Source: Methanomassiliicoccales archaeon (GTDB lineage: Archaea; Thermoplasmatota; Thermoplasmata; Methanomassiliicoccales; UBA472). Taken from it: a stretch of DNA of 64,000 bases. The notes beneath the pieces are model-generated. The model had not been told where the DNA came from and ran no database searches. It worked only from the letters and a program-made list of their open reading frames with translations. Of this stretch, positions 21,652 through 58,030 are shown in pieces (positions within the stretch are counted from its first letter, which is position 1; every line of letters starts with the position of its first letter). The DNA lies in contig CP058896.1 of the NCBI GenBank assembly GCA_013415865.1, positions 1,744,316-1,808,315 of the forward strand, read 5' to 3'. The position numbers and the translations under genes are program-made.

Positions 21652-22605
21652 TGAGATATGAGCAGAGCTGGGTTCAATAATTCTTCTCAATCAACATCGC
21701 CCGCAAAATAATAGATGTCGATCCAGGTTTCGGCTTACAGTCGGTAGTTTGGTTTCATGGTGTTATTGTAATCTGGCACTTTTAACATTTCCAAATCTGA
21801 GATATTTCCTAGCATGCAGAGGGAGGATCCAATCATAGGTCGTTCATAATAATTTTCAAGTCAACTGTTATTAAAAATCGGGTCTTAATATTATAAAAAA
21901 TGAGGTGGACTTTAATTTCGCTCCAACCCCCCTTCTACAAATTTTATTTACCATGCGCGCATTTTAAGATACGGCAATCTATTAACATCCATCGGTTAAA
22001 AGGGTGATTAATGTAAGGATAATCAATGAAGAATCCAAGGCCAGTCATGATTAAGCAAGGTTTGAATTTTTTCACGACCGGTCTTTCTTACTATGGCCCT
22101 TTCTTAAAATTATTTAATTGTTATGATAAATAATATTAAATCAATAAGGTAGGTCAACGCAATTTTCATTTCGAAGATTTCGGACCTCCTCTAATTATTG
22201 AACTTTATTCTATTTAATTTAATATATTATTATCGATTGATTATCATTTTTGCACACGAAAGTAAGGTTCGAACAATGTCCTATTCAATTGATGAAATTA
22301 CTTAAATATCCAGATATTGATTTTATGAATTATATTATTATAAATATTTTTAATTATTTTCATTATCTTATTATCAATTTTGATAATTAATTATTTATAT
22401 ACTGCAACTACAAACATATATCAAAAGCAAAATTGTCTTTGGGCATATTGAGGACTAAAATATAGGGGAGAAAGGTTAGAACAGCCCTCGAATTGACCAG
22501 ATGCGATTTTGCGCTCAAGGAAAAGACGAACAAATCTCGCGAGCAATCGATGAAAAAAGGTTGACGCGCAGATCTGCCGCTCGAAAATGGAGGAGGATGA
22601 ACTCT
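21652..22605. other. extremely AT-rich ORF-free intergenic island
   Basis: The track shows no ORF of 60 codons or more between 21678 and 22500. Hand count gives 4 G+C in 60 nt at 22321-22380 and 12 in 60 at 22381-22440, against 36 in 60 for a typical coding line (12001-12060). Confidence 0.85.
22370..22387. repeat. perfect 18-bp palindrome ATTATCAA-TT-TTGATAAT
   Basis: Read directly from the sequence. Related TTATCA/TGATAA half-sites recur near 22121 and 22232. Confidence 0.7.
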
Positions 22606-25600
22606 ATGGATAAAAGGAAATCAGCGATGGCGGTCTTTATTGCATTAATTATGGTTGCATCCACTTTTTTTGTCGCAGTACCTTTGGCACAGGCTGCGAA
22701 CGATAAGTGGACTTCCGAATTATATGCGTGGGACCCTGTCCAGAATGCATGGGTGAACGGTAACCTTGCCGGTTATCGGGAAGGAGATCTCGTTGGATTC
22801 AAATATGTTCTGACACACGACTCGGGGACTAATAATTTATCACCTGAGATAGACTCAGTATATGACCATTATAATATTGCGAAACATGCTTTCGGTATAG
22901 ATGCGGAGATCCTTTGGGCATATAACAGAGTGGGATGGAGCACCCAATTCCCAGTACATAGCGATGACGCGGACCTTAACACCCCCGATTTGGTTAGGAA
23001 CATCGATCCGGATGTATCCAATGCCTTTTTCGGAATTAGCGGTGGGGTAGTACAGAAATACTACAAGTTCAACGCGGGAAGATTCGAAGTACCGACCGGT
23101 ACGTCAATATACATTTATTTCCAAGCTCATTTAGCTGAGACCGCTTACTACAGCACAGTGACAACTCCGGAACCAATCACTGGCACGCCGGCCCCTCACT
23201 ATGGGGCTGCGTATTTCCCGGGGGCTTCGTTGCAAGCAGCGCTCTCTCTGGTATATACAGGAACGACTGCCCAGACCCAGAGCATTCCGGTCACTTATGC
23301 AGCTGGTAGCATCTCAGGCATGAAGTTCCATGATGCCAACTCAAATGGGATCAGGGACCCTGGGGAGGGAGGATTGTCGAACTGGACGATAATATTGGAA
23401 GGAGTATCCGCTGGAGGTTTCCCCATAGTCATGCAAACAACAACTGCGACCGATGGGACATACTCCTTCAACCAACTTCCGTGGGGCACATATTCCGTGA
23501 GAGAGGTGCTCAAACCAGGATGGACCCAGACATATCCAACTTCAAATGGTGGCGTCCACGTTGGGATAGTGATAGATGGAACAGACCTAACTGAGCAAAA
23601 TGTGAATTTCGGTAACTCGGCCCCTGGGAAGATAAGGGCAGCAAAGGTCATCGACAGAGATGGCGATGAATCAACCGAAGAGGACCAAATGCCCGGCGAA
23701 GGTTGGACATTTGAATTGTTCTATTATGACGCGGGAACATGGAGGTCTTTGGGCAGCAAGGTGACGGGGGCGGACGGCTATACGGCATGGTGGAGCCTGC
23801 TCCCACTTGGGAACTATAAAATGGTCGAGACCGGTAAAGCTGGGTACGCAGGGGTCCAGGAAAAATTCATATCCATAACCACAGCCCACCAAGAGATAAC
23901 CATGACCTTCTACAACAGGCCATTGGGCTCGATCACGGTCACCAAGGTGATCGACCAGGACGGGGATCCAGAGACCATGGAGGACCAGTCCAACGGTGGG
24001 GCAGGTTGGGAGTTCGAGCTATTATATTATAATGGCCAGACGTGGGTCAGCCAGGGAAAGAAGACCACTGACGGAACCGGTACAGTGACATGGAACGACC
24101 TGCCATTGGGCAGATATAAGGTCGTGGAGACACCGAGGGATTATTGGCATAACGCTGACCCTGTCGAAATTACGTTAACGGAGGCGGGTGTGAACGTTCC
24201 TGTGACAATGATCAATACCCCCCCGACACCTGCTATCAAAATAGTGAAGACCGGTCCTGTTGAAGCAGAGGTCGGAGAGATCATAACATACACGTATACA
24301 GTGACAAATGTAGGAGAGGCCCCGCTGAGCAATGTATATGTGATGGACTCGGTCTCAGGAGCGACCACATATATCTCAGGCGATGTAAATCTCAATGGAA
24401 TGCTGGATCTCACTGAGGTCTGGATCTTTGAGGACACGTGGACTGTAGCCGCCTCACCTGACCCATTGATAAACATTGCGACCGCCTATGGTACTTGGGA
24501 AGGCGTACAAGTTATGGACCAAGATGAATGGTCCTTGGACGTGGCCAAGCCGGCGATACACATCGAGAAGTACGGACCGACCGAGGCCGAGGTGGGCGAC
24601 TTAATCAAGTTCACCTTTGTGGTCACCAATGTTGGCGACGTCCCGTTGGCGAATGTTACGGTTGTTGATTCAATAGCTGGAGCAGCAATCTATGTCTCTG
24701 GTGATGTGAACAATAACCATATGCTCGATCTGACCGAAATGTGGACCTTTGAGCTATATTGGACTGTGCAATCTGCTCCGGATCCATTGTATAATGTCGG
24801 TACTGCTACTGGGTACTATGAAGATACACCAGTGACCGATGAAGACGATCATACGACGGTCGTAATTCAACCGGGTATGATCATAGTATATAAGTATGAT
24901 GACCTAAATGGAAATGGAGTCCATGATATTGGCGAGCCTGGTGTGCAAGGCGTCACAATCGAGCTATGGTTGAATGGAGAATTAAAAGAGACTAAGACCA
25001 CAAATGCGACCGGGGAAGCCGTATTCGATAAACTTAGAATGGGCACCTATGTCGTAAAAGAAATAATGCCAGCAGGGTGGTACTCCGATGCTCCATTAAC
25101 TCAGGAAGTGGTCATCGATCGGTCCGGCGAACAGGTGGACGTCACCTTCCTGAACATCCGCTACGGACAGATCTGCGTCTACAAGTACGACGACCTGAAC
25201 GGCAACGGAATAAGGGACGCGGGCGAGCCTGCGGTACCTGGCGTCACCATCGAACTCTGGTTCGGTGAACAGCTCGTAGGAAGTGGGACGACCGATTCGA
25301 ACGGAATGGTATGCTTCAGCAACCTCAAGCTCGGAACCTACCATGTCAAGGAGATCCTCCCGACGGGCTGGTACTCCGATGCTCCATTAACTCAGGAAGT
25401 GGTCATCGATGAGTCCGGCGAACGGGTGGACGTCACCTTCCTGAACATCAGGTATGTGACACTGTGCATCTACAAGTTCGCGGACATGGATGGAGACCTT
25501 GAGACCACTACCGATAGAGAGCCTGTGAATGTATGGGTGAAGGTAATCGGTCCTGGAGATGCGATCATCTTTGAAGGATACATAGGAGATGACGGTTACC

Positions 25601-26487
25601 TGTGCATTGAGAATCTCAAGGTTGGTGAATACACCGTGACGGAGACTCTTGAATGCTACTGGATACCGTTGACCGAGACCACGATAACGCAGAACGGACA
25701 ATCTGGGGACAGATTGGTGTTCACGTTCATAAATATGGAAATGGTCCCGTATCCTGGAGGACATACCATAGGCTTCTGGAAGAACAACATCCTGAAGAAC
25801 ATGCAAGGAAGGACAAAAGGAATACAGGTTCCATATGCCGATATTGCGAGATATCTCTCAGAAATTGATGAGATGTACGGCGATGAATATGAATTCCTTA
25901 ATGACCTGAGCTTCCAGGAGGCCTACAACATCCTAAGCATACCGAACCCAAGTGACCCGCAGGACAAGGCAGAGGCTCAGATCCTCTCGATGATATTGAC
26001 ATCTAGGCTATGGGCTCCGGAATGGGGCGACTCGTTCGTGCATCTGCCAGATGTAGGTCAGGGATCTACCTACACTGGATCTGGCAGCGGAGCGATTGAC
26101 TACATCCTGGGCCTGTATTCAGATGGAGCTTACAGCAAGGCACAGTATCTCGCGGATGGAATGAACAATGCTCCCGAGGGTGTCGACTGGTACGACTGGT
26201 GGTATGTAGGTCTCGATGTGTATGTCTTCAAGGACTACCTGTACGGATCACCGGTGGAAGGAGTTACGCTGACACTGACCGGACCTGATGGTACCATGAT
26301 CAGCCAGACGGACGAGTTGGGTTATGCCAGGTTCGAATGGCTCATACCGGGGACATACTTCCTTGAGATCACAGTGCCAGTGGGAATGGACCCGGTCGGA
26401 GCGACCACATTCACCTTCACGGTGAACCAGGCATGGGGCCTAGGGGACGACATCGTCAAGAGCTTTGTCGTCACCGATGAGCCATAA
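22606..26487 (+). CDS. giant secreted repeat protein (SdrD-B/Cna-B-like and DUF11-like Ig-fold repeats), putative adhesin
   Basis: Sec signal MDKRKSAMAVFIALIMVASTFFVAVPLAQA|AN. Repeats of the type YKYDDLNGNGxxDxGEPGVxGVTIELW and KTGPxEAEVGxxIxYTxxVTNVG. GGAGGAGG at 22589-22596. Alternative ATG at 22597. Confidence 0.85.
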   Translation: MDKRKSAMAVFIALIMVASTFFVAVPLAQAANDKWTSELYAWDPVQNAWVNGNLAGYREGDLVGFKYVLTHDSGTNNLSPEIDSVYDHYNIAKHAFGIDAEILWAYNRVGWSTQFPVHSDDADLNTPDLVRNIDPDVSNAFFGISGGVVQKYYKFNAGRFEVPTGTSIYIYFQAHLAETAYYSTVTTPEPITGTPAPHYGAAYFPGASLQAALSLVYTGTTAQTQSIPVTYAAGSISGMKFHDANSNGIRDPGEGGLSNWTIILEGVSAGGFPIVMQTTTATDGTYSFNQLPWGTYSVREVLKPGWTQTYPTSNGGVHVGIVIDGTDLTEQNVNFGNSAPGKIRAAKVIDRDGDESTEEDQMPGEGWTFELFYYDAGTWRSLGSKVTGADGYTAWWSLLPLGNYKMVETGKAGYAGVQEKFISITTAHQEITMTFYNRPLGSITVTKVIDQDGDPETMEDQSNGGAGWEFELLYYNGQTWVSQGKKTTDGTGTVTWNDLPLGRYKVVETPRDYWHNADPVEITLTEAGVNVPVTMINTPPTPAIKIVKTGPVEAEVGEIITYTYTVTNVGEAPLSNVYVMDSVSGATTYISGDVNLNGMLDLTEVWIFEDTWTVAASPDPLINIATAYGTWEGVQVMDQDEWSLDVAKPAIHIEKYGPTEAEVGDLIKFTFVVTNVGDVPLANVTVVDSIAGAAIYVSGDVNNNHMLDLTEMWTFELYWTVQSAPDPLYNVGTATGYYEDTPVTDEDDHTTVVIQPGMIIVYKYDDLNGNGVHDIGEPGVQGVTIELWLNGELKETKTTNATGEAVFDKLRMGTYVVKEIMPAGWYSDAPLTQEVVIDRSGEQVDVTFLNIRYGQICVYKYDDLNGNGIRDAGEPAVPGVTIELWFGEQLVGSGTTDSNGMVCFSNLKLGTYHVKEILPTGWYSDAPLTQEVVIDESGERVDVTFLNIRYVTLCIYKFADMDGDLETTTDREPVNVWVKVIGPGDAIIFEGYIGDDGYLCIENLKVGEYTVTETLECYWIPLTETTITQNGQSGDRLVFTFINMEMVPYPGGHTIGFWKNNILKNMQGRTKGIQVPYADIARYLSEIDEMYGDEYEFLNDLSFQEAYNILSIPNPSDPQDKAEAQILSMILTSRLWAPEWGDSFVHLPDVGQGSTYTGSGSGAIDYILGLYSDGAYSKAQYLADGMNNAPEGVDWYDWWYVGLDVYVFKDYLYGSPVEGVTLTLTGPDGTMISQTDELGYARFEWLIPGTYFLEITVPVGMDPVGATTFTFTVNQAWGLGDDIVKSFVVTDEP
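23638..24228 (+). repeat. tandem pair of about 100-aa domains (KVIDxDGDxxTxEDQ...GW.FEL.YY)
   Basis: Unit 1 is 23638-23940 and unit 2 is 23941-24228, aligned by eye at the protein level. Confidence 0.75.
24229..24873 (+). repeat. tandem pair of DUF11-like domains
   Basis: PAIKIVKTGPVEAEVGEIITYTYTVTNVGEAPLSNV.. aligns with PAIHIEKYGPTEAEVGDLIKFTFVVTNVGDVPLANV..; the units begin at 24229 and 24550. Confidence 0.8.
24874..25455 (+). repeat. 2 x 291-bp tandem repeat (SdrD-B-like domains) with a near-identical 3' portion
   Basis: 25078-25164 and 25369-25455 differ at only a handful of positions (TGGTACTCCGATGCTCCATTAACTCAGGAAGTGGTCATCGAT...). The 5' halves of the units are much more diverged. 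Confidence 0.9.
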
Positions 26488-31186: not shown

Positions 31187-31822
31187 ATGGTAGAGGTGGC
31201 CAGATCAAAGAAGGAGCTGAGGTCGGCGCTCCTGTCCAACGATGGCGAAAAAGCGCATGCCATAATATTCGATGACATATCTGGCCTATCAGCGATGGAG
31301 AGGGTGGAAAAGGTCATCCGTCCGGTATTGGACGAGATAGGCATCATGTGGTGGAAGGGGGAATCCTCTCTCTCACAGGTTTATTTCTCGGCGAAGCTCT
31401 GCGAGGAAGCGGTCCTGAGGCTCACGTCCGAGCAGAAATTGAGCATTTCGGAAGGGCCCAAGGTCGCCGTGGCCGCGCTCGAGGACCACCATCTCCTAGG
31501 GTCCAAGGTGGTAAGGATGATGGTCCAATCGGCCGGTCAGAGGGTCATAGACTATGGAAGGATGGATGTCGATTCTCTCGTGAATAAGGTATGCGAGGAT
31601 GACATAGAGTATCTGCTCGTCTCAACTCTGATGCTGCGCTCAGCTTTGAGGGTGAAGGACCTCAAAAAAGAGCTCGAGGAAAGAGGCCGCAGGACAAAGG
31701 TCATCGTCGGTGGAGCACCGTTCAGGTTCGATTGGGGCCTGTGGAGAAAGGTCGATGCCGACTTCACCGCATCATCCCCATTGATGGCCTTGGAGTTCAT
31801 CAGGAGGGAGGAGGAGCTATGA
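31187..31822 (+). CDS. cobalamin-binding corrinoid protein (MtbC/MttC-size)
   Basis: B12-binding cap helices, D-x-H-x2-G as EDHHLLG, S-x-L (VSTLML) and GG (VGGAPF) motifs. Confidence 0.85.
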   Translation: MVEVARSKKELRSALLSNDGEKAHAIIFDDISGLSAMERVEKVIRPVLDEIGIMWWKGESSLSQVYFSAKLCEEAVLRLTSEQKLSISEGPKVAVAALEDHHLLGSKVVRMMVQSAGQRVIDYGRMDVDSLVNKVCEDDIEYLLVSTLMLRSALRVKDLKKELEERGRRTKVIVGGAPFRFDWGLWRKVDADFTASSPLMALEFIRREEEL

Positions 31823-32856
31823 GCAGAGGCATATCCTCCATGGACAGGACGATGGCCGCCATACGTCACGAGCAACCTGACAGGGTACCAGCATTCCTTA
31901 ACCTCACTATGCATGGGGCCAAGGCCCTAGGGGTACCACTGAAGAGATACTTCTCGGACCCAGAGCTCGTCTGCAAGGGGCAGTTATTGATGCTCGAACG
32001 CTTCGGGGCGGATTCCTGCACGGCCTTCACATACTCTTCCGCGGAGCACGAGGCGTTCGGGGGTCATACGTACTTCTATGAGGACGGGCCTCCGAACTCA
32101 GGGAGGCCTATCATCGAGAATATTGAGGACATAGACCATCTTAAGGAGCCTGACATAGACTCCACCAGGTCGCTCATGGTCACGATCGAGGCGACGAGGC
32201 TGCTGAAGGACAGGTTGGGGGAAGAGGTCCCGATATTGGGACTTATAATATCGCCATTCTCTCTCCCGGTCATGCAGATGGGCTTCGACCGTTACTTTGA
32301 GCTTATGTACAAGGACCGGTCAAGGTTCGATGCGCTTATGAGGTTGAACACTGACTTCGAGGTAGAGCTGGCAAATCGTCAACTGGAGGCCGGGGCCACC
32401 GCGATAGTGTATTTTGACCCTGTCTCGTCCACCACCATCATTCCCAGGGAGAAGTTCTTGGAGACGGGCTTCAAGGTGGCGGAGAGGTGCATTTCAAGGA
32501 TAAAGGGGCCCACGGCCATCCACTTCGCATCAGGCAGATTCCTTGGCATAGCGGACAAGGTGGCCGAGCTCAACGTCATTGGGGTAGGGGTCGGTGTGGA
32601 GGAGGACCTCGCCGAGATAAAGAGAAAGATCGGGGACAGGTTGACCATCATCGGGAACCTGAACGGCGTCGAGATGCCTTCATGGTCTGAGGAGGATGTG
32701 GACATCAACGTCAAGGAGGCCATCGAAAAGGCTGCCCCGGGAGGAGGTTTCATCCTTTCGGACAATCATGGGGAGATCCCCTATCAGGTACCTGACAAGG
32801 TCCTTCATGACATAATGTCCGCTGTGGAACGGTATGGCCGTTACAGCGGTACATAG
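31819..32856 (+). CDS. URO-D-family methyltransferase (MtaA/MtbA/CmuA superfamily), atypical
   Basis: N-terminus PDRVP and URO-D-like blocks. ATG 31819 overlaps the corrinoid gene's stop (ATGA). It has only three Cys and lacks the H-x-C...C zinc site; it reads IHFASG and LSDNHGE at the positions I align to it. Confidence 0.8.
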   Translation: MSRGISSMDRTMAAIRHEQPDRVPAFLNLTMHGAKALGVPLKRYFSDPELVCKGQLLMLERFGADSCTAFTYSSAEHEAFGGHTYFYEDGPPNSGRPIIENIEDIDHLKEPDIDSTRSLMVTIEATRLLKDRLGEEVPILGLIISPFSLPVMQMGFDRYFELMYKDRSRFDALMRLNTDFEVELANRQLEAGATAIVYFDPVSSTTIIPREKFLETGFKVAERCISRIKGPTAIHFASGRFLGIADKVAELNVIGVGVGVEEDLAEIKRKIGDRLTIIGNLNGVEMPSWSEEDVDINVKEAIEKAAPGGGFILSDNHGEIPYQVPDKVLHDIMSAVERYGRYSGT

Positions 32857-32876
32857 ATCTGATGAGAGGGAGGGTC

Positions 32877-33611
32877 TCATTCCTGTCCTATGTCTGCAAC
32901 AAGCTTCTTGGCACCGTCGAGCGCCTTCCTTCCGCGCACCGTTATTGCATACCTGCCCCTTCCCCGTGCCTTGCTGACATAACCCGCGTCACATAATGGC
33001 CTGAGGTGATGTTGCAGATGTCCTGTCCTGAGCCCAAGGGATGAGCTAAGGTCCGAGAACGAAGACTCTCCTGCATCGAGCTTCAGGAGGATCCTGACCC
33101 TGACCGGATAAGAGAGCGGGTCTAAAGCCCTCGCGATGCCTTCTGGGTCATCAGCCACATCTCTTTGAACAGAAGGGCCGATGTTGGCCTTTATCTTCTC
33201 AGAGATCTCCATCGTCAACTTGGTGTCCCGGAGAAGGTTCTGGGCTATTGATGAGCATGCTGAATCCTTGCAGGGCGAGCTATTTGAGCACAGTATTCCT
33301 TCCAGTTCTTTGATCGAGAGCATCGCCCCTTCAAAGTCATCATTCTTATATCTGGAGACGGACAAGGCAAGAGCATCCCTTATCTTTTCAAGACACGCTT
33401 TTCGATTGGGGCATTCTGACGAGGCGACGAGCGCATCAAGGTTAGACCTCATCCTTTCCATGTTCGTCTCGGACATCAGCTCCACCATCTTGGACTGGAT
33501 GATGTTCCGGAACCCATCCCCCTTTGCCTCGGATATCATACAATTGAGTTCCTTGATGTCCTTGTGCAGGGCCTCTAGCCTCTCGACGATCTCGTTCTGG
33601 TCCGTCGACAT
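32877..33611 (-). CDS. ArsR-type wHTH regulator with an N-terminal coiled-coil and Cys-rich domain
   Basis: C-terminal YPVRVRILLKL..SFSDLSSSLGLRTGHLQHHLRPLCDAGYV. N-terminal Cys clusters ECPNRKAC and CSNSSPCKDSAC. Confidence 0.7.
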   Translation of the reverse strand: MSTDQNEIVERLEALHKDIKELNCMISEAKGDGFRNIIQSKMVELMSETNMERMRSNLDALVASSECPNRKACLEKIRDALALSVSRYKNDDFEGAMLSIKELEGILCSNSSPCKDSACSSIAQNLLRDTKLTMEISEKIKANIGPSVQRDVADDPEGIARALDPLSYPVRVRILLKLDAGESSFSDLSSSLGLRTGHLQHHLRPLCDAGYVSKARGRGRYAITVRGRKALDGAKKLVADIGQE

Positions 33612-33690
33612 TTAAAGATAGTTATGGAAGCAAGAATATTAATAGAATTGTATTAAAACATAATATTTATCTATTTTACAAAAGCATGAC

Positions 33691-34116
33691 ATGCCCGGTG
33701 AACTCATGGTCGAGATGCCAAAGGAAGTAGTGGAGATGTTCAACAATCCTCAAGCGGTCAAGGTCCTTACGACCATTTCCGCTGATGGCACATTGCATTC
33801 TGTCAGGGTAGGGAGCCTGATCGCCCCTGCGCCGAACCTGATCGCCGTCGGAGCGATATTGATGAAGACCTCCTCCAAGAACATGGAGCATATGAAGCAG
33901 AAGAACCAGCAGGTCGCTCTCCTTGTCGGAGCTGAGATGAAGTCATATCTTGTCCAGGCGAAGATCAAGGAAGTGCACAAATCGGGCCCTCTGTTCGACA
34001 AGATGAATGAGAACCTTAAGGCCATAGGACTTCAGGCAAGCGCGGTCTGGACCTTCGAGCCGACCGGCGTGTGGAACCAGAGCGCCAACTACGAGGCTGG
34101 TAAGAAGATCGCGTAA
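33691..34116 (+). CDS. pyridoxamine-5'-phosphate-oxidase-like FMN-binding split-barrel protein
   Basis: About 140 aa with VKVLTTISADGTLHSV.. typical of the PNPOx-like family. Weak, motif-level call. Confidence 0.45.
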   Translation: MPGELMVEMPKEVVEMFNNPQAVKVLTTISADGTLHSVRVGSLIAPAPNLIAVGAILMKTSSKNMEHMKQKNQQVALLVGAEMKSYLVQAKIKEVHKSGPLFDKMNENLKAIGLQASAVWTFEPTGVWNQSANYEAGKKIA

Positions 34117-40296: not shown

Positions 40297-40680
40297 TCAT
40301 CGGACGTTTTCCTGCGATCCTAGACCTTTCTCGATATCGACCATGACCCTTCCATTCTCCACTTTGACCTTGAATGTGGGAATGTCATGTGTCTCAAGGC
40401 TCCTGCCCCTGTCAGGCGGCCCTCTTCCATAGTTCCTGTCGGCCGGGCCTAGGAGAGCCTCCCCTGTAACGATGTCAAATTGGGCGAAATGGAGGGGGCA
40501 TGTCACTATCCTTCCATTGACGGTGCCACGGTCCAGCCTGGCCCCCTCATGTCCGCATCCCCGTCCGAACGCGTACAATTTACCAGCGTACCGAGCGACA
40601 ACAACATCATCACCCCCCACCTTGAAGGAGACCATGCCTCCCTCGGCGATCTCGTCCTCAGATCCAACGTCTACGAACAT
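40297..40680 (-). CDS. Rieske [2Fe-2S] domain protein
   Basis: CGH-x16-CPLH. ATG 40680 lies 1 nt after the upstream gene's stop. Confidence 0.8.
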   Translation of the reverse strand: MFVDVGSEDEIAEGGMVSFKVGGDDVVVARYAGKLYAFGRGCGHEGARLDRGTVNGRIVTCPLHFAQFDIVTGEALLGPADRNYGRGPPDRGRSLETHDIPTFKVKVENGRVMVDIEKGLGSQENVR

Positions 40681-40681
40681 C

Positions 40682-41014
40682 CTATCGCTCCATCTCGTTC
40701 TCTGGTATCTGTGGCAATGAGTCTGGGTCATGGACATCGATGTGCACAAAGAGACCGCACCAACATCGTTTCATCCGATCGAAATGCTTCTTATGCCAGG
40801 GTATGCAGGGGCACACCTTTTTCATGTCCTCATCCCTCACCCCTGTCAATCCCTTGCAGGGGCAGAACGGTATCCCGTGCCGCTCATAAAGGACAAGCTC
40901 CTGTTCGAGGCAGAAATCGACGAGCTCCTCATCTGGTGTGAATTTGAAACCGAGGGCGCTCACCAAGGGCCCGAACTGCTCGCGAAGGGCCTCCTTCTCT
41001 TTATCGATCTTCAT
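40682..41014 (-). CDS. ferredoxin:thioredoxin reductase catalytic-subunit-like protein
   Basis: FCPC-x14-CPC-x13-CWCGLFV compares with the FTR-B signature CPC..CPC..CHC. Start inferred at MKIDKEKE; the ORF track extends to 41209 across the upstream gene. Confidence 0.7.
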   Translation of the reverse strand: MKIDKEKEALREQFGPLVSALGFKFTPDEELVDFCLEQELVLYERHGIPFCPCKGLTGVRDEDMKKVCPCIPWHKKHFDRMKRCWCGLFVHIDVHDPDSLPQIPENEMER

Positions 41015-41024
41015 GTTCTTCAAC

Positions 41025-41276
41025 TTACTTGACACCCAGGAGGGAGCTGTACTTCCCTGGGTTGTAACCTTGTACGCAGGCATCGTCGATATACACAATG
41101 GGGAACGAAAGGTCCAACCTCTCCTTCTCCAGCCTTTCCCGGATCCTTTTTTTATCCTCATCGCTGGCCAGGTCATAATCGACGAAATCGAACGGTATGT
41201 TACGCTCATTGAACCATTGCTTTGTCTTCCTGCACCATGGACAAGTACTAAGGGTGTACATCAATACCTTTTTCAA
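41025..41276 (-). CDS. glutaredoxin-like small thioredoxin-fold protein
   Basis: 83 aa with MYTLSTCPWCRKTKQWF (CxxC), and FPIVYI before the C-terminal helix. Confidence 0.85.
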   Translation of the reverse strand: MKKVLMYTLSTCPWCRKTKQWFNERNIPFDFVDYDLASDEDKKRIRERLEKERLDLSFPIVYIDDACVQGYNPGKYSSLLGVK

Positions 41277-41280
41277 ATCA

Positions 41281-41625
41281 TCAATCCTCCAATCTGACCG
41301 ATATCTTCCCTTCAGAGACCCTCGTGGGATATCTTTTCAAGGCGACCTCGGGGGCCATCATCAGACCTCCCGTCCTTATGTCGAAGCTCCAGTCATGGCA
41401 GGGGCATGTGATGATATGCCCGCTCAAGGTCCCAGATGACAAAGGACAGCCCAGATGCGGACATCTGTTCGACAGGGCGAACACATCCCCCTGATGCTCC
41501 ACAAGCAGGACTGAAACTCCCTTGGGGTGGACGACCTTCATGCGCTTTTTCTCGAGGTCCGTAATCACGGCCACTTCCACCCATCCACCGGTCCCTGCCA
41601 TCCTTTTTTGCTCCGTGACCATCAC
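41281..41625 (-). CDS. Rieske [2Fe-2S] ferredoxin-like protein
   Basis: CPH-x16-CPCH; 114 aa. Confidence 0.85.
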   Translation of the reverse strand: MMVTEQKRMAGTGGWVEVAVITDLEKKRMKVVHPKGVSVLLVEHQGDVFALSNRCPHLGCPLSSGTLSGHIITCPCHDWSFDIRTGGLMMAPEVALKRYPTRVSEGKISVRLED

Positions 41626-41664
41626 AATGGCTACTGGCCGCTCATAAAACTATTGGTCCAATGC

Positions 41665-42303
41665 TCAGAGCAATATCTCTATGGAAGATATCAGGAAATA
41701 AAGGCCGAAAATGACCATTATACCGCCGGAGGCCACTATGAGAAGGTGATGCCATTTGACGTTCCAGAGACCCTTGGAACGGTTCACGGTCCTGCTCACG
41801 AGGATGTTCCAACCTGCGTCACATGAGATATGTACGATCACGAAAGCTGGCAGCATCCATATGCCGAACTCAGTGGCCGTGGCCACAAGTGCGGCTCCGA
41901 CGGTGGCCCACCAAAGGAGCCAATAAGGGTTGGACGCGGTCGAAAGGACACCATCAAAAGAGGCCCTCCTCTTTAACGCGCCTTCCTGCGTGATTATGAC
42001 ATCCCTCGCCCTCAGCATGCCGACCCCCATCCACAGTATGATCGCCCCTCCCACTATCCCGATCGTCGCTATTATAGAATCGTCGGATAGGATGGTCGCG
42101 AAGCCAAGGAAGATAAGGGCTATCAAGGGAACCTCTATCAGGGCATGTCCTAATGTAATGCCCAGACCTGCCCTGCCATCGCGATAACCCTGGGCAACAG
42201 TGGCAGCAAAGGTCGGACCTGGCATCATCACACCGGATAGCGAGATGAAGGCCACGGTGGCAAGGAAGAATATCGGCCCCTCCAGCGACATCAAAGCTAC
42301 CAA
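41665..42303 (-). CDS. LysE/RhtB family exporter
   Basis: About 210 aa with 6 TM helices and MPGPTFAATV near the N-terminus. Confidence 0.7.
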   Translation of the reverse strand: MVALMSLEGPIFFLATVAFISLSGVMMPGPTFAATVAQGYRDGRAGLGITLGHALIEVPLIALIFLGFATILSDDSIIATIGIVGGAIILWMGVGMLRARDVIITQEGALKRRASFDGVLSTASNPYWLLWWATVGAALVATATEFGIWMLPAFVIVHISCDAGWNILVSRTVNRSKGLWNVKWHHLLIVASGGIMVIFGLYFLISSIEILL

Positions 42304-50534: not shown

Positions 50535-52064
50535 TCAATGGAACATATCGTCACGGTCCGCGCTCTCATTGGCAAAATAGTATTGCGACCGCTCTTTTTG
50601 TGCTTGGGATATATCGGTGGAGAGGCCCTTGACATAGGATCCATAACGCTCCTTGATCTGCTCCTCCGCCGTCATGCTGCGTTTCACGGCCTTCTCCACA
50701 TCTCCCTCGTCGATCAATCCTTTGCCCTCGAGGGCTGCAATATCCCCAGCCGCTCGGATCAACCCGCCCAGCTCTCTCAACCTCAAAGAGAGCGCACCCT
50801 CGATGCCATCGGTCCTCTTGGCCCTCTTACGGGCCTCCCTGATGACCGCCTCGATGGCACCTCGAGAGGCATGCGGGATGCGACCGTCCATGACGATCTC
50901 CTGCGCAAGGAACTGTGCCAGCTTCGCCCTGTTCAGGTCATTGTCCTTCATGGCGACGTTGACGAGCACCTCATAGCCGTTCCCATTGATCCTTGATCGT
51001 AAAGGTGAAAGCACATGTTCAAGGTCCTGGATGTTGCAGGCCCCTACGAAAATGAAATCACATGGGACAGCGTCGACCTTCACGCTCGCTCCGGAGCTCT
51101 GAGGGTTATGACCGGTGATAGGGAACGCCTTTTCCTGCATGGCCGTCAATATGAACCTTTGGAGGTTCCCGAGGTGAGGGAGTTCATCGATGAAAAGCAC
51201 ACCTTCATGTGCCTCATGGACGGCCCCGGCGACGACCCTCTCGAACGGTGGCGTCCCTAGGTTCGAGTGACCACCATAGGGGTCGTGCCTCACGTCCCCT
51301 AAGAGCTCGGCCTCAGAGGCCCCAGTGGCAAGCACGAAAGGGTTCCTGTTCAAGGGGACCAGGACCTTCCTGGGTGATAATCTCTCCAGCTCCCTTCTTT
51401 TCTCAAGGGCCTTTTGGTCGAGCATCCTTATCTTATCCCCGGCCCTCTCGAAGACCACGACCTCTTCCTTGCCAAAGATGGTCCTGGTGGTGGTGACCTT
51501 GGTCTTCCCGACCATCCCCTGGAACACGGGGGCCGATCCCATGGACTCCATAAGGCCGGACATGATGTCACCGAACGGGTTGGATTGACCTTCGGTCGCC
51601 TTGTTGCGCTCGCACTTCGGGCAGATCCTCTCCCTCGGGCTGGAATAGGTACCGCAATTGCGGCATCGGTATCCCAGCTTCTCGGCGACATTCTGGGGGG
51701 CCGCCTGAGGTTCGATCAGCTCCCCCTCGGCCGACTCCTTCGACTCCCTCTCCTGTTCGACCTCGCTGGCCTTCTTTATCTCTATCGAAGGCCTTTCCGG
51801 GTTCTCAGGATTGTGAACGACCCTGATCTCCTCTTTGGGCTTTGGAAGGTGGAGCGCAAGGGCCTGGGCTATCATCGACTTCCCTGTGCCCGGCGGACCG
51901 ACCAACAGAAGGTTCCTCCGTTGACGTGCGGCGATGCGGGCAAGGGCCACGGCCTCGTCCTGGCCTATGACCCTGGCCAACGGGTCCTTCGGTATCTCAA
52001 TGTCCGCCGTGGACTCTATCGACCGGAGGTCGACCTCCCGTTGTATGTTCACCTTACCTGTCAT
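50535..52064 (-). CDS. LonB-like AAA+ ATPase lacking a protease domain, with a Zn-ribbon insertion
   Basis: VIGQDEAV..LLLVGPPGTGKS (Walker A), GVLFIDELP (Walker B), LRSR sensor. Insertion CRNCGTYSSPRERICPKCE. The protein ends after the AAA lid, with no Ser-Lys protease domain and no TM hairpin. Confidence 0.7.
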   Translation of the reverse strand: MTGKVNIQREVDLRSIESTADIEIPKDPLARVIGQDEAVALARIAARQRRNLLLVGPPGTGKSMIAQALALHLPKPKEEIRVVHNPENPERPSIEIKKASEVEQERESKESAEGELIEPQAAPQNVAEKLGYRCRNCGTYSSPRERICPKCERNKATEGQSNPFGDIMSGLMESMGSAPVFQGMVGKTKVTTTRTIFGKEEVVVFERAGDKIRMLDQKALEKRRELERLSPRKVLVPLNRNPFVLATGASEAELLGDVRHDPYGGHSNLGTPPFERVVAGAVHEAHEGVLFIDELPHLGNLQRFILTAMQEKAFPITGHNPQSSGASVKVDAVPCDFIFVGACNIQDLEHVLSPLRSRINGNGYEVLVNVAMKDNDLNRAKLAQFLAQEIVMDGRIPHASRGAIEAVIREARKRAKRTDGIEGALSLRLRELGGLIRAAGDIAALEGKGLIDEGDVEKAVKRSMTAEEQIKERYGSYVKGLSTDISQAQKERSQYYFANESADRDDMFH

Positions 52065-53512: not shown

Positions 53513-53884
53513 GTATACACCTCATTTCGCATATGGAAAAACGTCCTAAGTCCAATTACGCACAACAGTCCTGCATCCCGCAAGAGTTATGTTCAGTTCC
53601 CTCTGGCGGAAATCCTTTCTACGGTGCATCTCAAGTCCTTAGCTGAGATTCGTGATGGATGATAGTGAATGTGTGATATCGGAAAGCTTAGCCGCTTTTC
53701 CGGACCCTAATGGTGATAATCCTAGTTATTAATGTTTCGGTCGATACGACCGACGGAGGGGATCTGAACTAGATGGTACGAACCTTCGTTCTGTGAAAAA
53801 TCGGACCTGCGACCCCTCACCCCAGAAGTTCCAAACCATATCAATATTTATTTGTTCGAGCATTTGGATTATTCATCCAACATA

Positions 53885-55708
53885 ATGAGAGGTCGTTCAT
53901 TGTACGATCGCATGGAGAAGGTCCGCGAGCAACTTAGGAAGGGCGACATAGGTGAGAACAGGTCCTGCGAATATTATCCCTGCCATTACGACGGGCAGAA
54001 CTGTTCATTGTGCTATTGCCCCTTCTACCCATGCAACGATGAGACCCTTGGGAAGTTCGTCAGCTCAAAGAAAGGCGGTGTGGTTTGGAGCTGCGAGGAC
54101 TGTTTTTTCGTGCATAGGGGGGAGGTGGTCAAGGATCTGTTCAGAATGATTGACGCCAGGAACGGTCATGACCTATCCCATGATGAATTGATGGATCTCA
54201 AAAAGGAGCTCGAGGAGCTCCATTTCAAGAAGGCCAAGTGCGTGATGGTGATGGGCGCGACGTCGGGGGCAGGAAAATCCTTGATGGCGACGGCGCTCTG
54301 CCGACATTTCTCGGACCTGGGCTACTCGGTCTCGCCGTTCAAAGGGCAGAACATGTCCCTGAACTCGACCGTGACCAAGAGAGGGGAAGAGATCGCCCGG
54401 GCGCAGGACCTCCAGGCGAGGGCCGCAAGGACAGAGCCGCGCGCGAGGATGAACCCGATACTCCTGAAACCGGTCAAGGATGATATCTCTCAGGTCATCG
54501 TCGAGGGGAGACCTCTTAGGGACATGAACGTTGCGCAATATTATGATGGATTTGCCTTGACCGAGGGCATGAACATCATCAAAAGGAACCTGGACATCCT
54601 TTCGAGGATCTCGGACATCATCGTCATCGAAGGTGCTGGCAGTCCCGCCGAGATCAACATGTCGGACAAGGACATCACGAACATGCGCACGGCCGAGGTC
54701 GCGGGAGCGACATGTATCCTGATCGTTAACATAGAGTGGGGCGGGGCCTTCGCGTACGCATATGGAACCCTGATGCTGCTTCCAGAGCATGAACGGCGGA
54801 TGTTCAAGGGCATCATCATCACGAACCTCCATGGAAGCAAGGCGTCCCTGCGCTCTGGAGAAGAACTTTTGGAGAGAGAGACAGGGGTTCCGGTCCTGGG
54901 CGTGGTGCCTCACATCGACCTCGACCTTCCGGACGAGGATTCGATGTTCATAGGGATGAGAAGGACGAATGGCGATATCAAGGTCGGGATCATCCGCCTC
55001 CCTAGGATATCCAACTTCACAGATTTCGATTCCCTTGGCTTGTCAGGGGCCAGATTGATCTACATCACCTCACCCTCTGAGGTAGAGGAGGTCGATGCCC
55101 TCATCATACCCGGAACCAAGAACACGGTCGCCGACCTTGAATGGTTGATGGAAAGCGGCATAGGGGATGCCCTGCTGGAGCAGGTCGGACGGAAACCTTT
55201 GCTCGGGGTCTGTGGGGGTTACCAGATGATGGGGACGGTTATCGACGATCCCTATGGCATCGAGGGAGGGAGACCTGGAACATATAAAGGCCTAGGGCTG
55301 CTGCCTCTCAGGACCGTGTTCGACCGCCGGGATAAGAGGACCGTGCAGGTGACAGGCTCACTTCTTCCGGAAAAGGTCGGTCGGGTCAGGGGATATGAGA
55401 TACACATGGGGATATCGGAGCGCGGCGATTGTCAGGCATTGTTCGAGCTCGATTCACCTGATGGAGGCGTCCCTGAAGGTTGCGTCGCATATGACGGGAT
55501 GGTCATGGGCACCTACCTGCATGGCCTTTTCGACCTTCCCGCCTTCAGGGAGCGGTTTCTTTCCCTGGCAAAGAAGGGAGAGAAGACCGATATGCTGGAA
55601 GAGGACCATGAAGCAACGGTCGAGAGGAGCCTGGACCTCCTAGCGCGGACGCTGGAAGAAAATGTGGACCTTGACCTTCTTCACAAGGAGATGGGGGTGA
55701 CAAGGTGA
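53885..55708 (+). CDS. cobQ: cobyric acid synthase with an N-terminal cysteine-rich small domain
   Basis: N-terminus CEYYPCHYDGQNCSLCYCPFYPC..CEDC. ATPase domain MGATSGAGKS..PFKGQNMSLNS..MNPILLKP. Glutaminase domain LLGVCGGYQMMG..YLHGLF. The ORF track starts at TTG 53852. Confidence 0.9.
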   Translation: MRGRSLYDRMEKVREQLRKGDIGENRSCEYYPCHYDGQNCSLCYCPFYPCNDETLGKFVSSKKGGVVWSCEDCFFVHRGEVVKDLFRMIDARNGHDLSHDELMDLKKELEELHFKKAKCVMVMGATSGAGKSLMATALCRHFSDLGYSVSPFKGQNMSLNSTVTKRGEEIARAQDLQARAARTEPRARMNPILLKPVKDDISQVIVEGRPLRDMNVAQYYDGFALTEGMNIIKRNLDILSRISDIIVIEGAGSPAEINMSDKDITNMRTAEVAGATCILIVNIEWGGAFAYAYGTLMLLPEHERRMFKGIIITNLHGSKASLRSGEELLERETGVPVLGVVPHIDLDLPDEDSMFIGMRRTNGDIKVGIIRLPRISNFTDFDSLGLSGARLIYITSPSEVEEVDALIIPGTKNTVADLEWLMESGIGDALLEQVGRKPLLGVCGGYQMMGTVIDDPYGIEGGRPGTYKGLGLLPLRTVFDRRDKRTVQVTGSLLPEKVGRVRGYEIHMGISERGDCQALFELDSPDGGVPEGCVAYDGMVMGTYLHGLFDLPAFRERFLSLAKKGEKTDMLEEDHEATVERSLDLLARTLEENVDLDLLHKEMGVTR

Positions 55709-56553
55709 AGGGCAACATCATGTTCCAGGCGACATCTTCAAGCGCTGGCAAGAGCACTCTCACCGCCGGTCTCTGCAGATTGCTGGCCCGTAAAGGCGTA
55801 TCTGTGGCGCCCTTCAAGGCACAGAACCTTTCTCTGAACTCCTTCGTGACCGTCGATGGAGGTGAGATAGGTATATCCCAGGCACATCAGGCATGGGCAT
55901 GCGGGACCGAGCCGCATGTGGACATGAACCCGGTCCTGTTGAAGCCAAAGGGCAGGTCGGGCATGCAGGTCATCGTCAATGGGAGACCATATAAAGAGAT
56001 AGGCCCCGACGGTGAGAAGGTCGAGACGGACGAGCTTATAAAGGCCGTCAAGGAGGCCTATTCCCGCCTCATTTCAAGGTACGATGTGATCGTGATCGAG
56101 GGCTCGGGATCGCCGGCAGAGGTCAACCTAAGGGGGAGGGACATCGCGAACATGACCACGGCCAGGATCACCTCTGCTCCGGTGATATTGGTCGGCGACA
56201 TCGACAAGGGCGGCGTGTTCGCCGGCCTTTTCGGCACCTACAGCCTGCTCTCTGAGGATGAGAAGCGAATGGTGAAAGGATTTATCATCAACAGGTTCAG
56301 GGGAGACGCGTCGATCCTCAAGAAAGGCGTCGATGAGCTGGAACGAAGGCTTTCCTGTCCTTGCCTCGGCATCATGCCCTACCTGAGGCTCAACGTTCCC
56401 GCCGAGGACAGCATGGAGCTCGGGAAGAGCGGTCCCATGTCCTCTGAGGGGGATGTCCGGGATTCCTGGTCAAGGTCCCTTGACCTGCTCGCTGATGAGA
56501 TGGCCCGTTCATTGGACATCGGTAAGATAGAGAACTTGATCGCAAAAGGATAA
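55705..56553 (+). CDS. CobQ-like ATPase-domain-only paralogue (no glutaminase domain)
   Basis: MFQATSSSAGKS..PFKAQNLSLNS..MNPVLLKPKG..VIEGSGSPAE, but it ends at 282 aa. GTG 55705 overlaps the cobQ stop (GTGA). Confidence 0.75.
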   Translation: MKGNIMFQATSSSAGKSTLTAGLCRLLARKGVSVAPFKAQNLSLNSFVTVDGGEIGISQAHQAWACGTEPHVDMNPVLLKPKGRSGMQVIVNGRPYKEIGPDGEKVETDELIKAVKEAYSRLISRYDVIVIEGSGSPAEVNLRGRDIANMTTARITSAPVILVGDIDKGGVFAGLFGTYSLLSEDEKRMVKGFIINRFRGDASILKKGVDELERRLSCPCLGIMPYLRLNVPAEDSMELGKSGPMSSEGDVRDSWSRSLDLLADEMARSLDIGKIENLIAKG

Positions 56554-57368: not shown

Positions 57369-57455
57369 GCCGAGGTAACCAAGCCCGGTATGGTGGTAGT
57401 CTCGAAAACTACTGGGAACCCTCCCTCGGGAGTTCAAATCTCCCCCTCGGCGCCA
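57369..57455 (+). tRNA. tRNA-Ser (CGA)
   Basis: Hand-folded. Acceptor GCCGAGG/CCTCGGC; D arm ACCA-AGCCCGGTA-TGGT; anticodon stem GTAGT/ACTAC with loop CT-CGA-AA; long variable arm GGGA-ACCC-TCCC; T arm GGGAG-TTCAAAT-CTCCC; discriminator G; encoded CCA. Confidence 0.92.
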
Positions 57456-57457
57456 TC

Positions 57458-58030
57458 TCATCTCAGGTACTCGAAATAACCGGGCCCTAGGACCCTGTCC
57501 TGGACCCAGTTCGCAAAGCTCTCCGTCCTGGGATACAGGTCAGCAGGGAAATTGGCGGTCATGAAATCCTCGAACATTGAGTTAAGGTATCCGTCCTGTT
57601 CGGGGCTAAGGCGGTCCTCTATCCTGGGGAAGACTATATCTTCCTCCTTTCGGACATGGGCCTGCATATGGTCGGCCATCCTTCTGCCTTCCAGGCATAA
57701 TTTGTCATAATTTCTTGACGAGAAGGCCTCTCTCAGGGATGCGATCATCGTTCGTGCCTCCTCATGCTCTGCGACAAGTTCTTCAAGATCCTCTTTTTTC
57801 AGGGATCCGTTCTCCACGGCCACGGGGAACACGAACCTTTCCTCTTTCATGTGATGGAAACCGTCCATGAACCTATCGAGGAAGCCAACGATCTCCTCCA
57901 TCTCCTCGACATGCTTGTTCACGGTCCTCTGTTTAGAGGCCTCTCCCAGGACATCGACTACCTGTCTTATGAGTCCATGATCGTATTGGAGCAAGGTGAT
58001 GGAGATGCGCATGGTTGATTTTTTACGCAT
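57458..58030 (-). CDS. hemerythrin-like (HHE cation-binding) domain protein
   Basis: Repeated His/Glu motifs: DHGLIR, HHMKEERFVFP, EHEEAR and HVRKEEDIVFP. Confidence 0.8.
   Translation of the reverse strand: MRKKSTMRISITLLQYDHGLIRQVVDVLGEASKQRTVNKHVEEMEEIVGFLDRFMDGFHHMKEERFVFPVAVENGSLKKEDLEELVAEHEEARTMIASLREAFSSRNYDKLCLEGRRMADHMQAHVRKEEDIVFPRIEDRLSPEQDGYLNSMFEDFMTANFPADLYPRTESFANWVQDRVLGPGYFEYLR

Follow-up and report, generated by a model that had tools for sequence, protein, structure and literature searches.

A corrinoid protein and a zinc-site-less MtaA-fold partner in a Methanomassiliicoccales archaeon: core of a cassette with DUF1638 transducers and a possible corrinoid-state sensor module

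The known corrinoid methyltransferase systems serve in catabolism, and B12 has a second established role as a light-sensing chromophore. The closest described couples consist of a coenzyme M (CoM) methylase (MT2) such as MtaA or MtbA, with a fold of the uroporphyrinogen decarboxylase (URO-D) type, and a corrinoid protein such as MtaC, MtbC, or MttC, with a substrate methyltransferase (MT1) as a further partner. The 64-kb stretch of DNA analyzed here (the window; contig CP058896.1 of the metagenome-assembled genome of a Methanomassiliicoccales archaeon) contains two adjoining genes reminiscent of such a couple. The first encodes a corrinoid (B12-binding) protein of 211 amino acids in which a helical cap at the N terminus precedes a Rossmann domain that binds B12 (PF02607 and PF02310; 31187 to 31822, + strand), and the second encodes a 345-amino-acid protein of the URO-D/MtaA fold without the cysteine ligands of the MtaA zinc site (PF01208; 31819 to 32856, + strand), which corresponds to NCBI entry QLH75545.1 (100% identity), encoded on a contig of 1.8 Mb. 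The pair resembles an MT2-plus-corrinoid couple in fold and probably in working, yet neither its zinc site nor its scores qualify it as MtaA, MtbA, or MtsA. An earlier sequence-only reading of the window had called the pair an orphan; related loci show it instead as the conserved part of a cassette that is widespread and has three members, the third being a transducer containing the domain DUF1638. This three-part composition points to signaling and away from catabolism of an alternative substrate.

The URO-D-family protein shares with MtaA and MtbA the TIM-barrel fold, the first zinc-ligand histidine, and the D-P-x-x-S and G-N motifs, and its partner is, like MtaC, MtbC, and MttC, a corrinoid protein of some 210 residues with a cap, a Rossmann domain, and a DxHxxG motif. 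In contrast to MtaA and MtbA, with which it shares ∼20 to 24% identity, the two cysteine ligands are replaced by alanine and histidine in every family member, the scores lie well under the family cutoffs, an MT1 partner and a link to methanogenesis genes are absent, and the hosts are mostly bacterial. MtsA/MtsB also combines one URO-D-fold protein with one corrinoid protein and has no separate MT1. MtsA chemistry is zinc-thiolate based, whereas the cysteine ligands are absent from the pair, which is set apart from MtsA by description only. The type 1 mlp clusters described by Kountz and Balskus in 2023 (PMC10418091) are likewise built from widespread nonmethanogenic homologs of CoM methyltransferases and a corrinoid protein, without a pterin methyltransferase. 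These clusters, found for the most part in Firmicutes, contain two or three Mlps (including Mlp2 and Mlp3) and a RACE activase and have been connected with the chemistry of methyl-sulfur or methyl-selenide compounds (PMC10418091), whereas the pair has a single URO-D-fold gene, no recurrent RACE, and signaling genes on its flanks. The comparison with MtoA proposed in the sequence-only reading does not hold, as MtoA is MtrH-like and not URO-D-like; with MtoB being MtvB-like, the pair is not an Mto/Mtv O-demethylase system (PMC8630106). In CarH, LitR, and AerR, a B12-binding domain with a helical cap serves as a sensory element. Those are single proteins or antirepressors acting on DNA-binding partners, they sense light, and they show no methyltransferase-like partner, DUF1638, or kinase.

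The URO-D-family protein matches PF01208 with an E value of 2.8e-60. Its AlphaFold model (predicted local distance difference test [pLDDT] of 91.5) shows a URO-D-type (β/α)8 barrel with MtaA from Methanosarcina mazei (PDB 4ay7) as the top structural match (template modeling [TM] scores of 0.87/0.89; root mean square deviation of 2.4 Å), followed closely by uroporphyrinogen decarboxylases (TM scores of 0.81 to 0.84). As MtaA is the best structural match, docking of a corrinoid protein is plausible. MtaA 4ay7 is also the best solved relative by sequence (phmmer E value of 2.6e-14), and the phmmer alignment places "lHiC-G" of MtaA opposite "iHFASG" and "apgCG" opposite "sdnHG." The residues of the 4ay7 chain at the ligand columns are H246, C248, and C325, which we take to be the native zinc ligands H240, C242, and C319 of MtaA, with the chain numbering offset by 6 through a tag. 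The histidine is retained as H235, and the two cysteines are replaced by A237 and H317. This alignment bears out the loss of zinc ligands that the sequence-only reading had suspected by eye. Its count of three cysteines, C52 (LVCKG), C67 (DSCTA), and C224 (ERCIS), is exact. Among 85 family sequences, H235 is kept in 84, and A237 as well as the segment D315-N-H317-G-E319 is present in all 85, leaving the ligand columns without cysteine. As judged from these sequences, a member of this family cannot carry a cysteine-ligated zinc site of the MtaA type.

The family models, among them TIGR01463, NF040654, and NF041608 for methyltransferases of the MtaA/MtbA/MtsA type, give a similar picture, with scores of 99.8 bits for TIGR01463 (MtaA/CmuA; cutoff, 235.4), 84.7 bits for MtbA (cutoff, 600), 82.5 bits for MtaA (cutoff, 400), and 70.2 bits for HemE (TIGR01464; cutoff, 302.95). 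Uroporphyrinogen decarboxylases carry an N-terminal RQAGR motif and a catalytic aspartate; in the comparison with 6w2o and 4wsh, no residues align with the RQAGR segment, and the aspartate column of "fSDi" is occupied by Tyr72. Judged by the zinc-site and cutoff results, the protein thus qualifies neither as a CoM methylase nor as a decarboxylase. The conserved residues of the pocket are polar, acidic, or aromatic and comprise H235, H317, E319, D315, N316, D200, N280, and N282 as well as invariant tyrosine, phenylalanine, and tryptophan residues; whether such a pocket accommodates another metal or a donor of the onium type is a matter of speculation.

A protein search yields more than 3,700 matches, the best 120 of which show 51 to 68% identity with the URO-D-family protein. 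Named sources among these best matches include Methanococcoides, Methanosarcina, Bacteroidetes, SAR324, Nitrospirae, Aminicenantes, and Kosmotoga, besides others, and the annotation of all best matches goes no further than "uroporphyrinogen decarboxylase family" or an automatically transferred "MtbA." With one genome counted per species and two family-specific peptide patterns used for recognition, at least 586 species genomes from many phyla carry the family. Most hosts are bacteria, and many of them, such as Bacteroidales, Thiobacillus, relatives of Beggiatoa, and magnetotactic Nitrospirota, are not known as methylotrophs. Members drawn from many phyla share on average 63% pairwise identity, and an alignment of 22 sequences shows 72 invariant columns, including H235, A237, S238, and N316-H-G-E-I-P321, with no invariant cysteine column. 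The family is recognized by the signature SPFS[LV]P[VP]MQ ... H235-x-A237-S238 ... D315-N-H317-G-E-I-P321 in a protein encoded after an overlapping corrinoid gene; the window protein fits this signature and contains all invariant family columns. Semiconserved cysteines (67 to 89%) are found at columns 66 (89%), 181 (80%), 197 (74%), and 241 (68%) and also at column 271 (window numbering), none of them at an MtaA ligand position. These cysteines are typical of the kinase-linked majority of the family and mostly missing from the clade of the window protein; a site that binds metal or responds to redox conditions could be built from them.

The corrinoid protein matches PF02607 (E value of 6e-7) and PF02310 (E value of 6e-12), and its nearest match in the PDB is the trimethylamine corrinoid protein 7xcn (E value of 3e-14). 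The B12-binding motif is D100-H-H102-L-L-G105, and conservation among 79 family members reaches at least 90% at the residues D100-x-H102-x-x-G105, S146-x-L148, and G175-G176. The protein thus shows the cap and Rossmann architecture with the DxHxxG, SxL, and GG elements of methyltransferase-cognate corrinoid proteins. It remains below the family cutoffs for TIGR02370 (66.4 versus 215.3 bits) and MtbC (55.2 versus 350 bits), and the NCBIfam match to CarH is weak (E value of 3e-7; 29.8 bits versus a cutoff of 400). The two genes of the pair are translationally coupled at a junction (31802 to 31822, + strand; read directly from the sequence) in which the Shine-Dalgarno-like purine-rich run AGGAGGGAGGAGGAG lies just before an ATGA overlap of the start codon (31819 to 31821) with the stop codon (31820 to 31822). 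Most of the 80 related loci described below also show this 4-nucleotide overlap. The open reading frame (ORF) coordinates and sizes, the ATGA coupling, and the DHHLLG motif agree with the sequence-only reading, and the pair as well as the adjoining regulator gene can be regarded as real genes since each of the three proteins has clear homologs.

The gene neighborhood was compared across 81 loci, that is, 80 relatives and the contig of the window itself (L001). A homolog of the corrinoid protein is present at 80 of these, the exception (L052) ending at a contig edge, and wherever upstream DNA is retained (all 80 loci), its gene immediately precedes the URO-D-family gene on the same strand. An apparently distant corrinoid gene in 25 loci proved to be an artifact of overlong ORF starts. 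Likewise, apparent fusions of the URO-D-family protein with DUF1638 or with the corrinoid protein in L036, L037, L046, and L067 derive from ORFs overextended through overlapping genes (in L036 in another frame). All-against-all clustering of the neighboring ORFs gives a single other widely shared cluster, with 207 members from 75 loci, located mostly on the same strand and with a median position just downstream of the URO-D-family gene. This cluster consists of histidine kinases, and the first ∼240 residues of these proteins match the Pfam family DUF1638. With a custom profile, the next gene encodes a signaling protein in 74 of the 79 loci with downstream DNA. A full DUF1638-like domain follows the URO-D-family gene immediately in 59 loci, and a transducer without DUF1638 but with a domain characterized by the motif "ADYAMxxDLL" follows in 15 further loci. 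Neither type is found in seven loci, of which two have less than 300 nucleotides of downstream DNA and a third (L071) ends ∼430 nucleotides after the gene; the remaining four are the window and its closest relatives.

Among 71 downstream proteins, Pfam recognizes DUF1638 in 51, HATPase_c in 40, HisKA in 33, PAS in about 12, GGDEF in 5, and REC in 5. Signaling domains also dominate the same-strand positions −2 and +2, with HATPase_c in 30 of 75 loci, PAS in 28, and REC in 27, besides GGDEF and EAL. The 25 most frequent flanking families at these positions, from ∼75 loci, include no MT1, pterin methyltransferase, or RamA/RACE, and no B12 biosynthesis genes are found among the recurrent flanking families there. 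This agrees with the sequence-only reading, which had found no MT1 in the window and had named an MT1 gene adjacent to the pair in relatives as an observation that would count against it: no MT1 ranks among the recurrent flanking families of the 80 relatives, and the Pfam annotation of the genes of the 64-kb window contains no MtaB, MtmB, MtbB, MttB, or MtgB family. RamA/RACE is likewise absent from the Pfam annotation of the window, which holds no second gene of the URO-D fold.

In the transducers, DUF1638 is located at the N terminus and fused to kinase or GGDEF outputs, no membrane segment is evident, and three cysteines of the domain are more than 90% conserved. N-terminal fusion to alternative outputs without an evident membrane segment is the pattern of a cytoplasmic input domain. 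DUF1638 is followed in L005 to L081 by an unannotated domain of ∼150 residues, possibly GAF-like and not recognized by Pfam, with the consensus ADYAMxxDLLxxL...LFxxLFAP...FPEYxxxYLNL...VCGLAIxNAR. In the 15 loci in which this domain occurs without DUF1638, it forms a stand-alone protein of ∼240 amino acids or the N terminus of a kinase or PAS protein. The cultured methanogen Methanococcoides burtonii provides an example of the full arrangement (L086; CP000300, 1,029,643 to 1,046,689), in the order PAS kinase, corrinoid protein, URO-D-family protein, 563-amino-acid kinase, and peroxiredoxin, with the cassette trio itself at 1,037,000 to 1,040,400. Besides this downstream peroxiredoxin, an Fe/Mn superoxide dismutase (SOD) is encoded directly upstream of the pair in Methanomassiliicoccales; such oxidative-stress neighbors may be coincidental or a hint of redox sensing. 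A c-di-GMP-I riboswitch (L017, 4793 to 4879) lies ∼4 kb upstream of the cassette in a metagenome-assembled genome of the Syntrophomonadaceae and is the sole Rfam match in 20 related loci.

Independent evidence connects DUF1638 with corrinoid proteins. In Phaeobacter inhibens, the DUF1638 protein PGA1_c13340 and a RamA-like protein are needed for a split B12-dependent methionine synthase, and the gene for PGA1_c13340 adjoins that for the stand-alone B12-binding piece of the enzyme (PMC5764234). A homolog from Ruegeria is described in a 2025 paper as "predicted to enable reductive recharging of cobalamin" (PMC12478193). These two cases identify DUF1638 as a domain that works with corrinoid proteins. 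The P. inhibens system, described by Price et al. in 2018, resembles the cassette in the functional link between a corrinoid protein that stands alone and the product of a neighboring DUF1638 gene (PMC5764234). In P. inhibens, DUF1638 occurs as a separate protein, and the metabolic pathway also involves RamA and methyltransferases that bind homocysteine and pterin, whereas in the cassette, it forms the N terminus of kinases and cyclases, RamA is not recurrent, and the methyltransferase has a URO-D fold. A description of a cassette of a corrinoid protein, a URO-D-family protein, and a DUF1638 kinase was not found in the full-text literature, a search in which subscription journals are mostly uncovered, so that this absence is not proof.

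These findings give about an even chance that the pair, together with the transducer, is part of a B12-based cytoplasmic module sensing the corrinoid state, a role more likely than that of an orphan enzyme. The two coupled genes would encode a self-contained module made of a His-on corrinoid protein and an MtaA-fold partner without the thiol-activating zinc site. The MtaA-like protein would dock the corrinoid protein and set its state, methyl-Co(III) versus Co(I)/Co(II), driven by redox conditions or by a methyl donor or acceptor whose reaction does not depend on a zinc thiolate. The DUF1638 transducer would then read this state and pass it on to a phosphorelay or a c-di-GMP network. In the clade of the window, the pair would signal to an unlinked partner or work alone. 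Taken one step further, and at slightly less than even confidence, the cassette may represent a previously unrecognized class of input module, in which the methylation or redox state of a cobamide bound to protein is set by a methyltransferase-like enzyme and read by DUF1638 fused to kinases or cyclases in at least a dozen phyla of bacteria and archaea, with the window as a transducer-less archaeal offshoot.

Several points weigh against the sensor module. It is drawn from gene neighborhoods, and these cover the best 80 of at least 586 loci, all taken from the genome_contigs collection. The 64-kb window itself contains no histidine kinase or other transducer, and no DUF1638-like ORF is detected in it at an E value below 10. 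In a neighbor-joining tree rooted on MtaA, the window protein groups with six Methanomassiliicoccales sequences (L002 to L004, L084, L085, and L087), and all seven members of this clade lack the downstream transducer. Since the window has none, the sensor module rests on relatives with 47 to 58% identity, the range that separates this clade from the rest of the family. DUF1638 may, furthermore, act in corrinoid reactivation and not in sensing (PMC12478193), and two-component genes next to a metabolic operon may do no more than control its expression, an arrangement seen in the mec cassette with its PocR kinase (PMC9768040).

Seven residues with a conservation of at least 90% in the rest of the family (E36, V51, C66, L123, W184, A187, and A233) are altered in the clade of the window. 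The missing transducer and these changed residues suggest that the window pair may signal to an unlinked partner or work alone. L026, from another Methanomassiliicoccales genome, falls outside this clade and has a DUF1638-GAF-kinase. The pair behaves as a unit, as relatives have both or neither of the two genes between SOD and the regulator/PNPOx-like genes described below. A disguised transducer was sought in the N-terminal domain of the regulator and in the PNPOx-like protein, and profile-profile comparisons with DUF1638 and the "ADYAMxxDLL" domain all gave a probability of less than 1%.

The main alternative, which we consider unlikely, is a metabolic methyltransferase of two proteins in the manner of MtsA/MtsB. 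Here, one URO-D-fold enzyme would catalyze both half-reactions with nonthiol substrates such as a methoxylated compound, a pterin, or a methyl donor of the onium type, and the kinases would only regulate expression or monitor flux. The MtaA fold, the tightly coupled corrinoid protein with intact B12 motifs, and the occurrence of the window pair alone, without a transducer, are in line with such an enzyme. Precedents exist in other two-protein systems and in corrinoid clusters under two-component regulation such as the mec cassette (PMC9768040). The missing cysteine ligands for thiol chemistry, however, do not fit, nor do the many hosts not known as methylotrophs. In ∼75 loci, signaling genes dominate the flanks, and RamA/RACE, MT1, and pterin methyltransferases are not among the recurrent families. 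Finally, the fusion of a corrinoid-associated domain to several signaling outputs is the signature of an input domain, which argues for the sensor module over a metabolic enzyme.

A different partner for the pair was implied by the sequence-only reading, which pointed to two cysteine clusters in the convergent regulator gene as possible sensors of redox state or metal. This gene (32877 to 33611, − strand; PF01022) encodes an ArsR/SmtB-type winged-helix protein of 244 amino acids and most likely belongs to a unit separate from the adjoining pair. The protein matches PF01022 (HTH_5/ArsR) with an E value of 2e-8 and 34.4 bits (cutoff, 22), shows profile matches in the PDB to NmtR, ArsR, and SmtB, and has a C-terminal domain with a fold like that of SmtB, CzrA, and NolR (Foldseek TMt of about 0.7, for the winged-helix part only). 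Contrary to the known ArsR/SmtB proteins, with which it shares the winged helix, the ArsR/HTH_5 signature, and the SmtB/CzrA-like fold, it belongs to a small family with an N-terminal helical extension of 150 residues carrying the motif C-x5-C ... C-x4-C. This extension is helical in the model at low confidence (pLDDT 46 to 76) and has no match in Pfam, PDB sequences, or PDB folds; an exhaustive search among 1.84 billion representatives finds 32 proteins with this domain. Five of the seven cysteines of the regulator are invariant among nine close homologs, and four are invariant in 30 aligned homologs (C67-x5-C73 ... C114-x4-C119), all located in the N-terminal extension outside the winged-helix core. 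The two cysteine clusters are therefore real and conserved, with four invariant residues, but the link to the pair does not stand, as the partner of the regulator is a divergent PNPOx-like gene.

This constant neighbor of the regulator (33706 to 34116, + strand) encodes a PNPOx-like (split-barrel) protein of 136 amino acids, divergently transcribed. The assignment comes from the NCBI name of the window copy, "pyridoxamine 5'-phosphate oxidase family protein," and from PF01243, which is found in three of its 34 close homologs; the window copy has no Pfam or PDB sequence match itself. The protein shows ∼75% identity where the URO-D-family proteins show ∼58%, and its gene is often near SOD. The syntenic stretch reads SOD, [pair], [regulator], PNPOx-like gene, PCC, and NadA, the bracketed elements being variable. 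L088 and L089 show the order PNPOx-like gene, regulator, and SOD without the pair (PNPOx-like gene at 5511 to 5921 in L088), the two genes are again divergent in L090 (PNPOx-like gene at 363 to 773), and in L002, L004, and L087, the pair is followed by the PNPOx-like gene without the regulator. The divergent promoter region of the regulator and the PNPOx-like gene contains a conserved AT-rich block of 35 bp, TTAATAGAAnnnTATTAAAnCATAATATTTATCTA (33639 to 33673; from the alignment of relatives), which is invariant in the window, L003, and L085 and near invariant in L084, where the flanking proteins are just 40 to 65% identical. This candidate element probably comprises the divergent promoters plus an operator of the regulator/PNPOx-like unit. 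It occurs once in the window; an operator shared with the pair was considered and rejected, since no second copy is found in the window even with two mismatches and none lies upstream of the corrinoid gene, a region poorly conserved among relatives.

Control of the pair by the ArsR-type regulator, sensing redox state or metal, is therefore improbable. All nine close regulator homologs lie on Methanomassiliicoccales-type contigs, three inspected contexts (L003, L084, and L085) put the regulator beside the pair, two further homologs lie on contigs equal in length to contigs with the pair, and the four invariant cysteines could bind a metal or a cluster. Against this stand the regulator with its divergent PNPOx-like gene near SOD in the absence of the pair, the pair without the regulator, and the position of the 35-bp block. 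These contexts and the placement of the block mark the regulator and the PNPOx-like gene as an independent unit abutting the pair, which may be a redox or oxidative-stress unit.

As a special case of the sensor module, a B12 light sensor, in which methyl- or adenosylcobalamin is photolyzed and the MtaA-like protein regenerates the alkylcobalamin, has only a slim chance. Light responses are known from large sulfur bacteria and magnetotactic bacteria, which are among several hosts living in gradients or mats, and the corrinoid protein shares the cap and B12-binding architecture of the CarH/AerR photoreceptors along with the weak CarH match. Many hosts, however, live without light and oxygen, among them methanogens, Bacteroidales of digesters, and Desulfobacterota of deep sediments, and a DNA-binding fusion of the photoreceptor type is not seen. 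Slimmer still is the chance that the pair stores, loads, or remodels corrinoids or tetrapyrroles, with the URO-D-fold protein binding a tetrapyrrole as UROD does: UROD structures match nearly as well as MtaA, the C-terminal "NHGE" resembles the "GHG" motif of UROD, and CbiA-type amidotransferase genes lie ∼20 kb away, but the RQAGR motif and the catalytic aspartate column are not conserved, the HemE score is far below its cutoff, neither the window nor the 20 related loci scanned whole contain a cobalamin riboswitch, and B12 biosynthesis genes do not recur at positions −2 and +2.

The rest of the 64-kb window consists by Pfam of housekeeping genes, among them those for SOD, a thermosome subunit, NadA, tRNA synthetases, and FeoB. 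A compact cluster encoding Rieske, ferredoxin-thioredoxin reductase beta, glutaredoxin, and Rieske proteins (40297 to 41700, − strand) keeps its synteny in every related Methanomassiliicoccales contig that was inspected. A role in corrinoid or F430 biosynthesis is possible for two amidotransferase genes of the CbiA/GATase_3 type and a gene for an Mg-chelatase-like AAA protein (53852 to 56553, + strand; 50535 to 52064, − strand), located ∼20 kb from the pair. A 1,328-amino-acid protein with SpaA, SdrD_B, DUF7507, DUF11, and CarboxypepD_reg repeats (22501 to 26487, + strand) suggests a surface or adhesin-like protein and is encoded in the stretch with the lowest GC content of the window (0.44, compared to about 0.53). 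A hemerythrin-domain protein (57458 to 58030, − strand) is encoded beside tRNA-Ser(CGA) (57369 to 57455), the only tRNA of the window, and overlaps the ORF shadow of this tRNA.

For annotation, genes of this family should not be taken as evidence of methylotrophic methanogenesis in metagenome-assembled genomes of Methanomassiliicoccales or Methanosarcinaceae. If the reading as a corrinoid-state sensor is true, it would explain a widespread pair that is routinely misannotated as "uroporphyrinogen decarboxylase" or "MtbA." It would also give DUF1638, which is required for split methionine synthases in marine bacteria as well, its first molecular role, as the reader of the state of a corrinoid protein. 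The cassette would then constitute a new class of signal input and provide anaerobes and gradient organisms with a new means of sensing their methyl-group or redox status.

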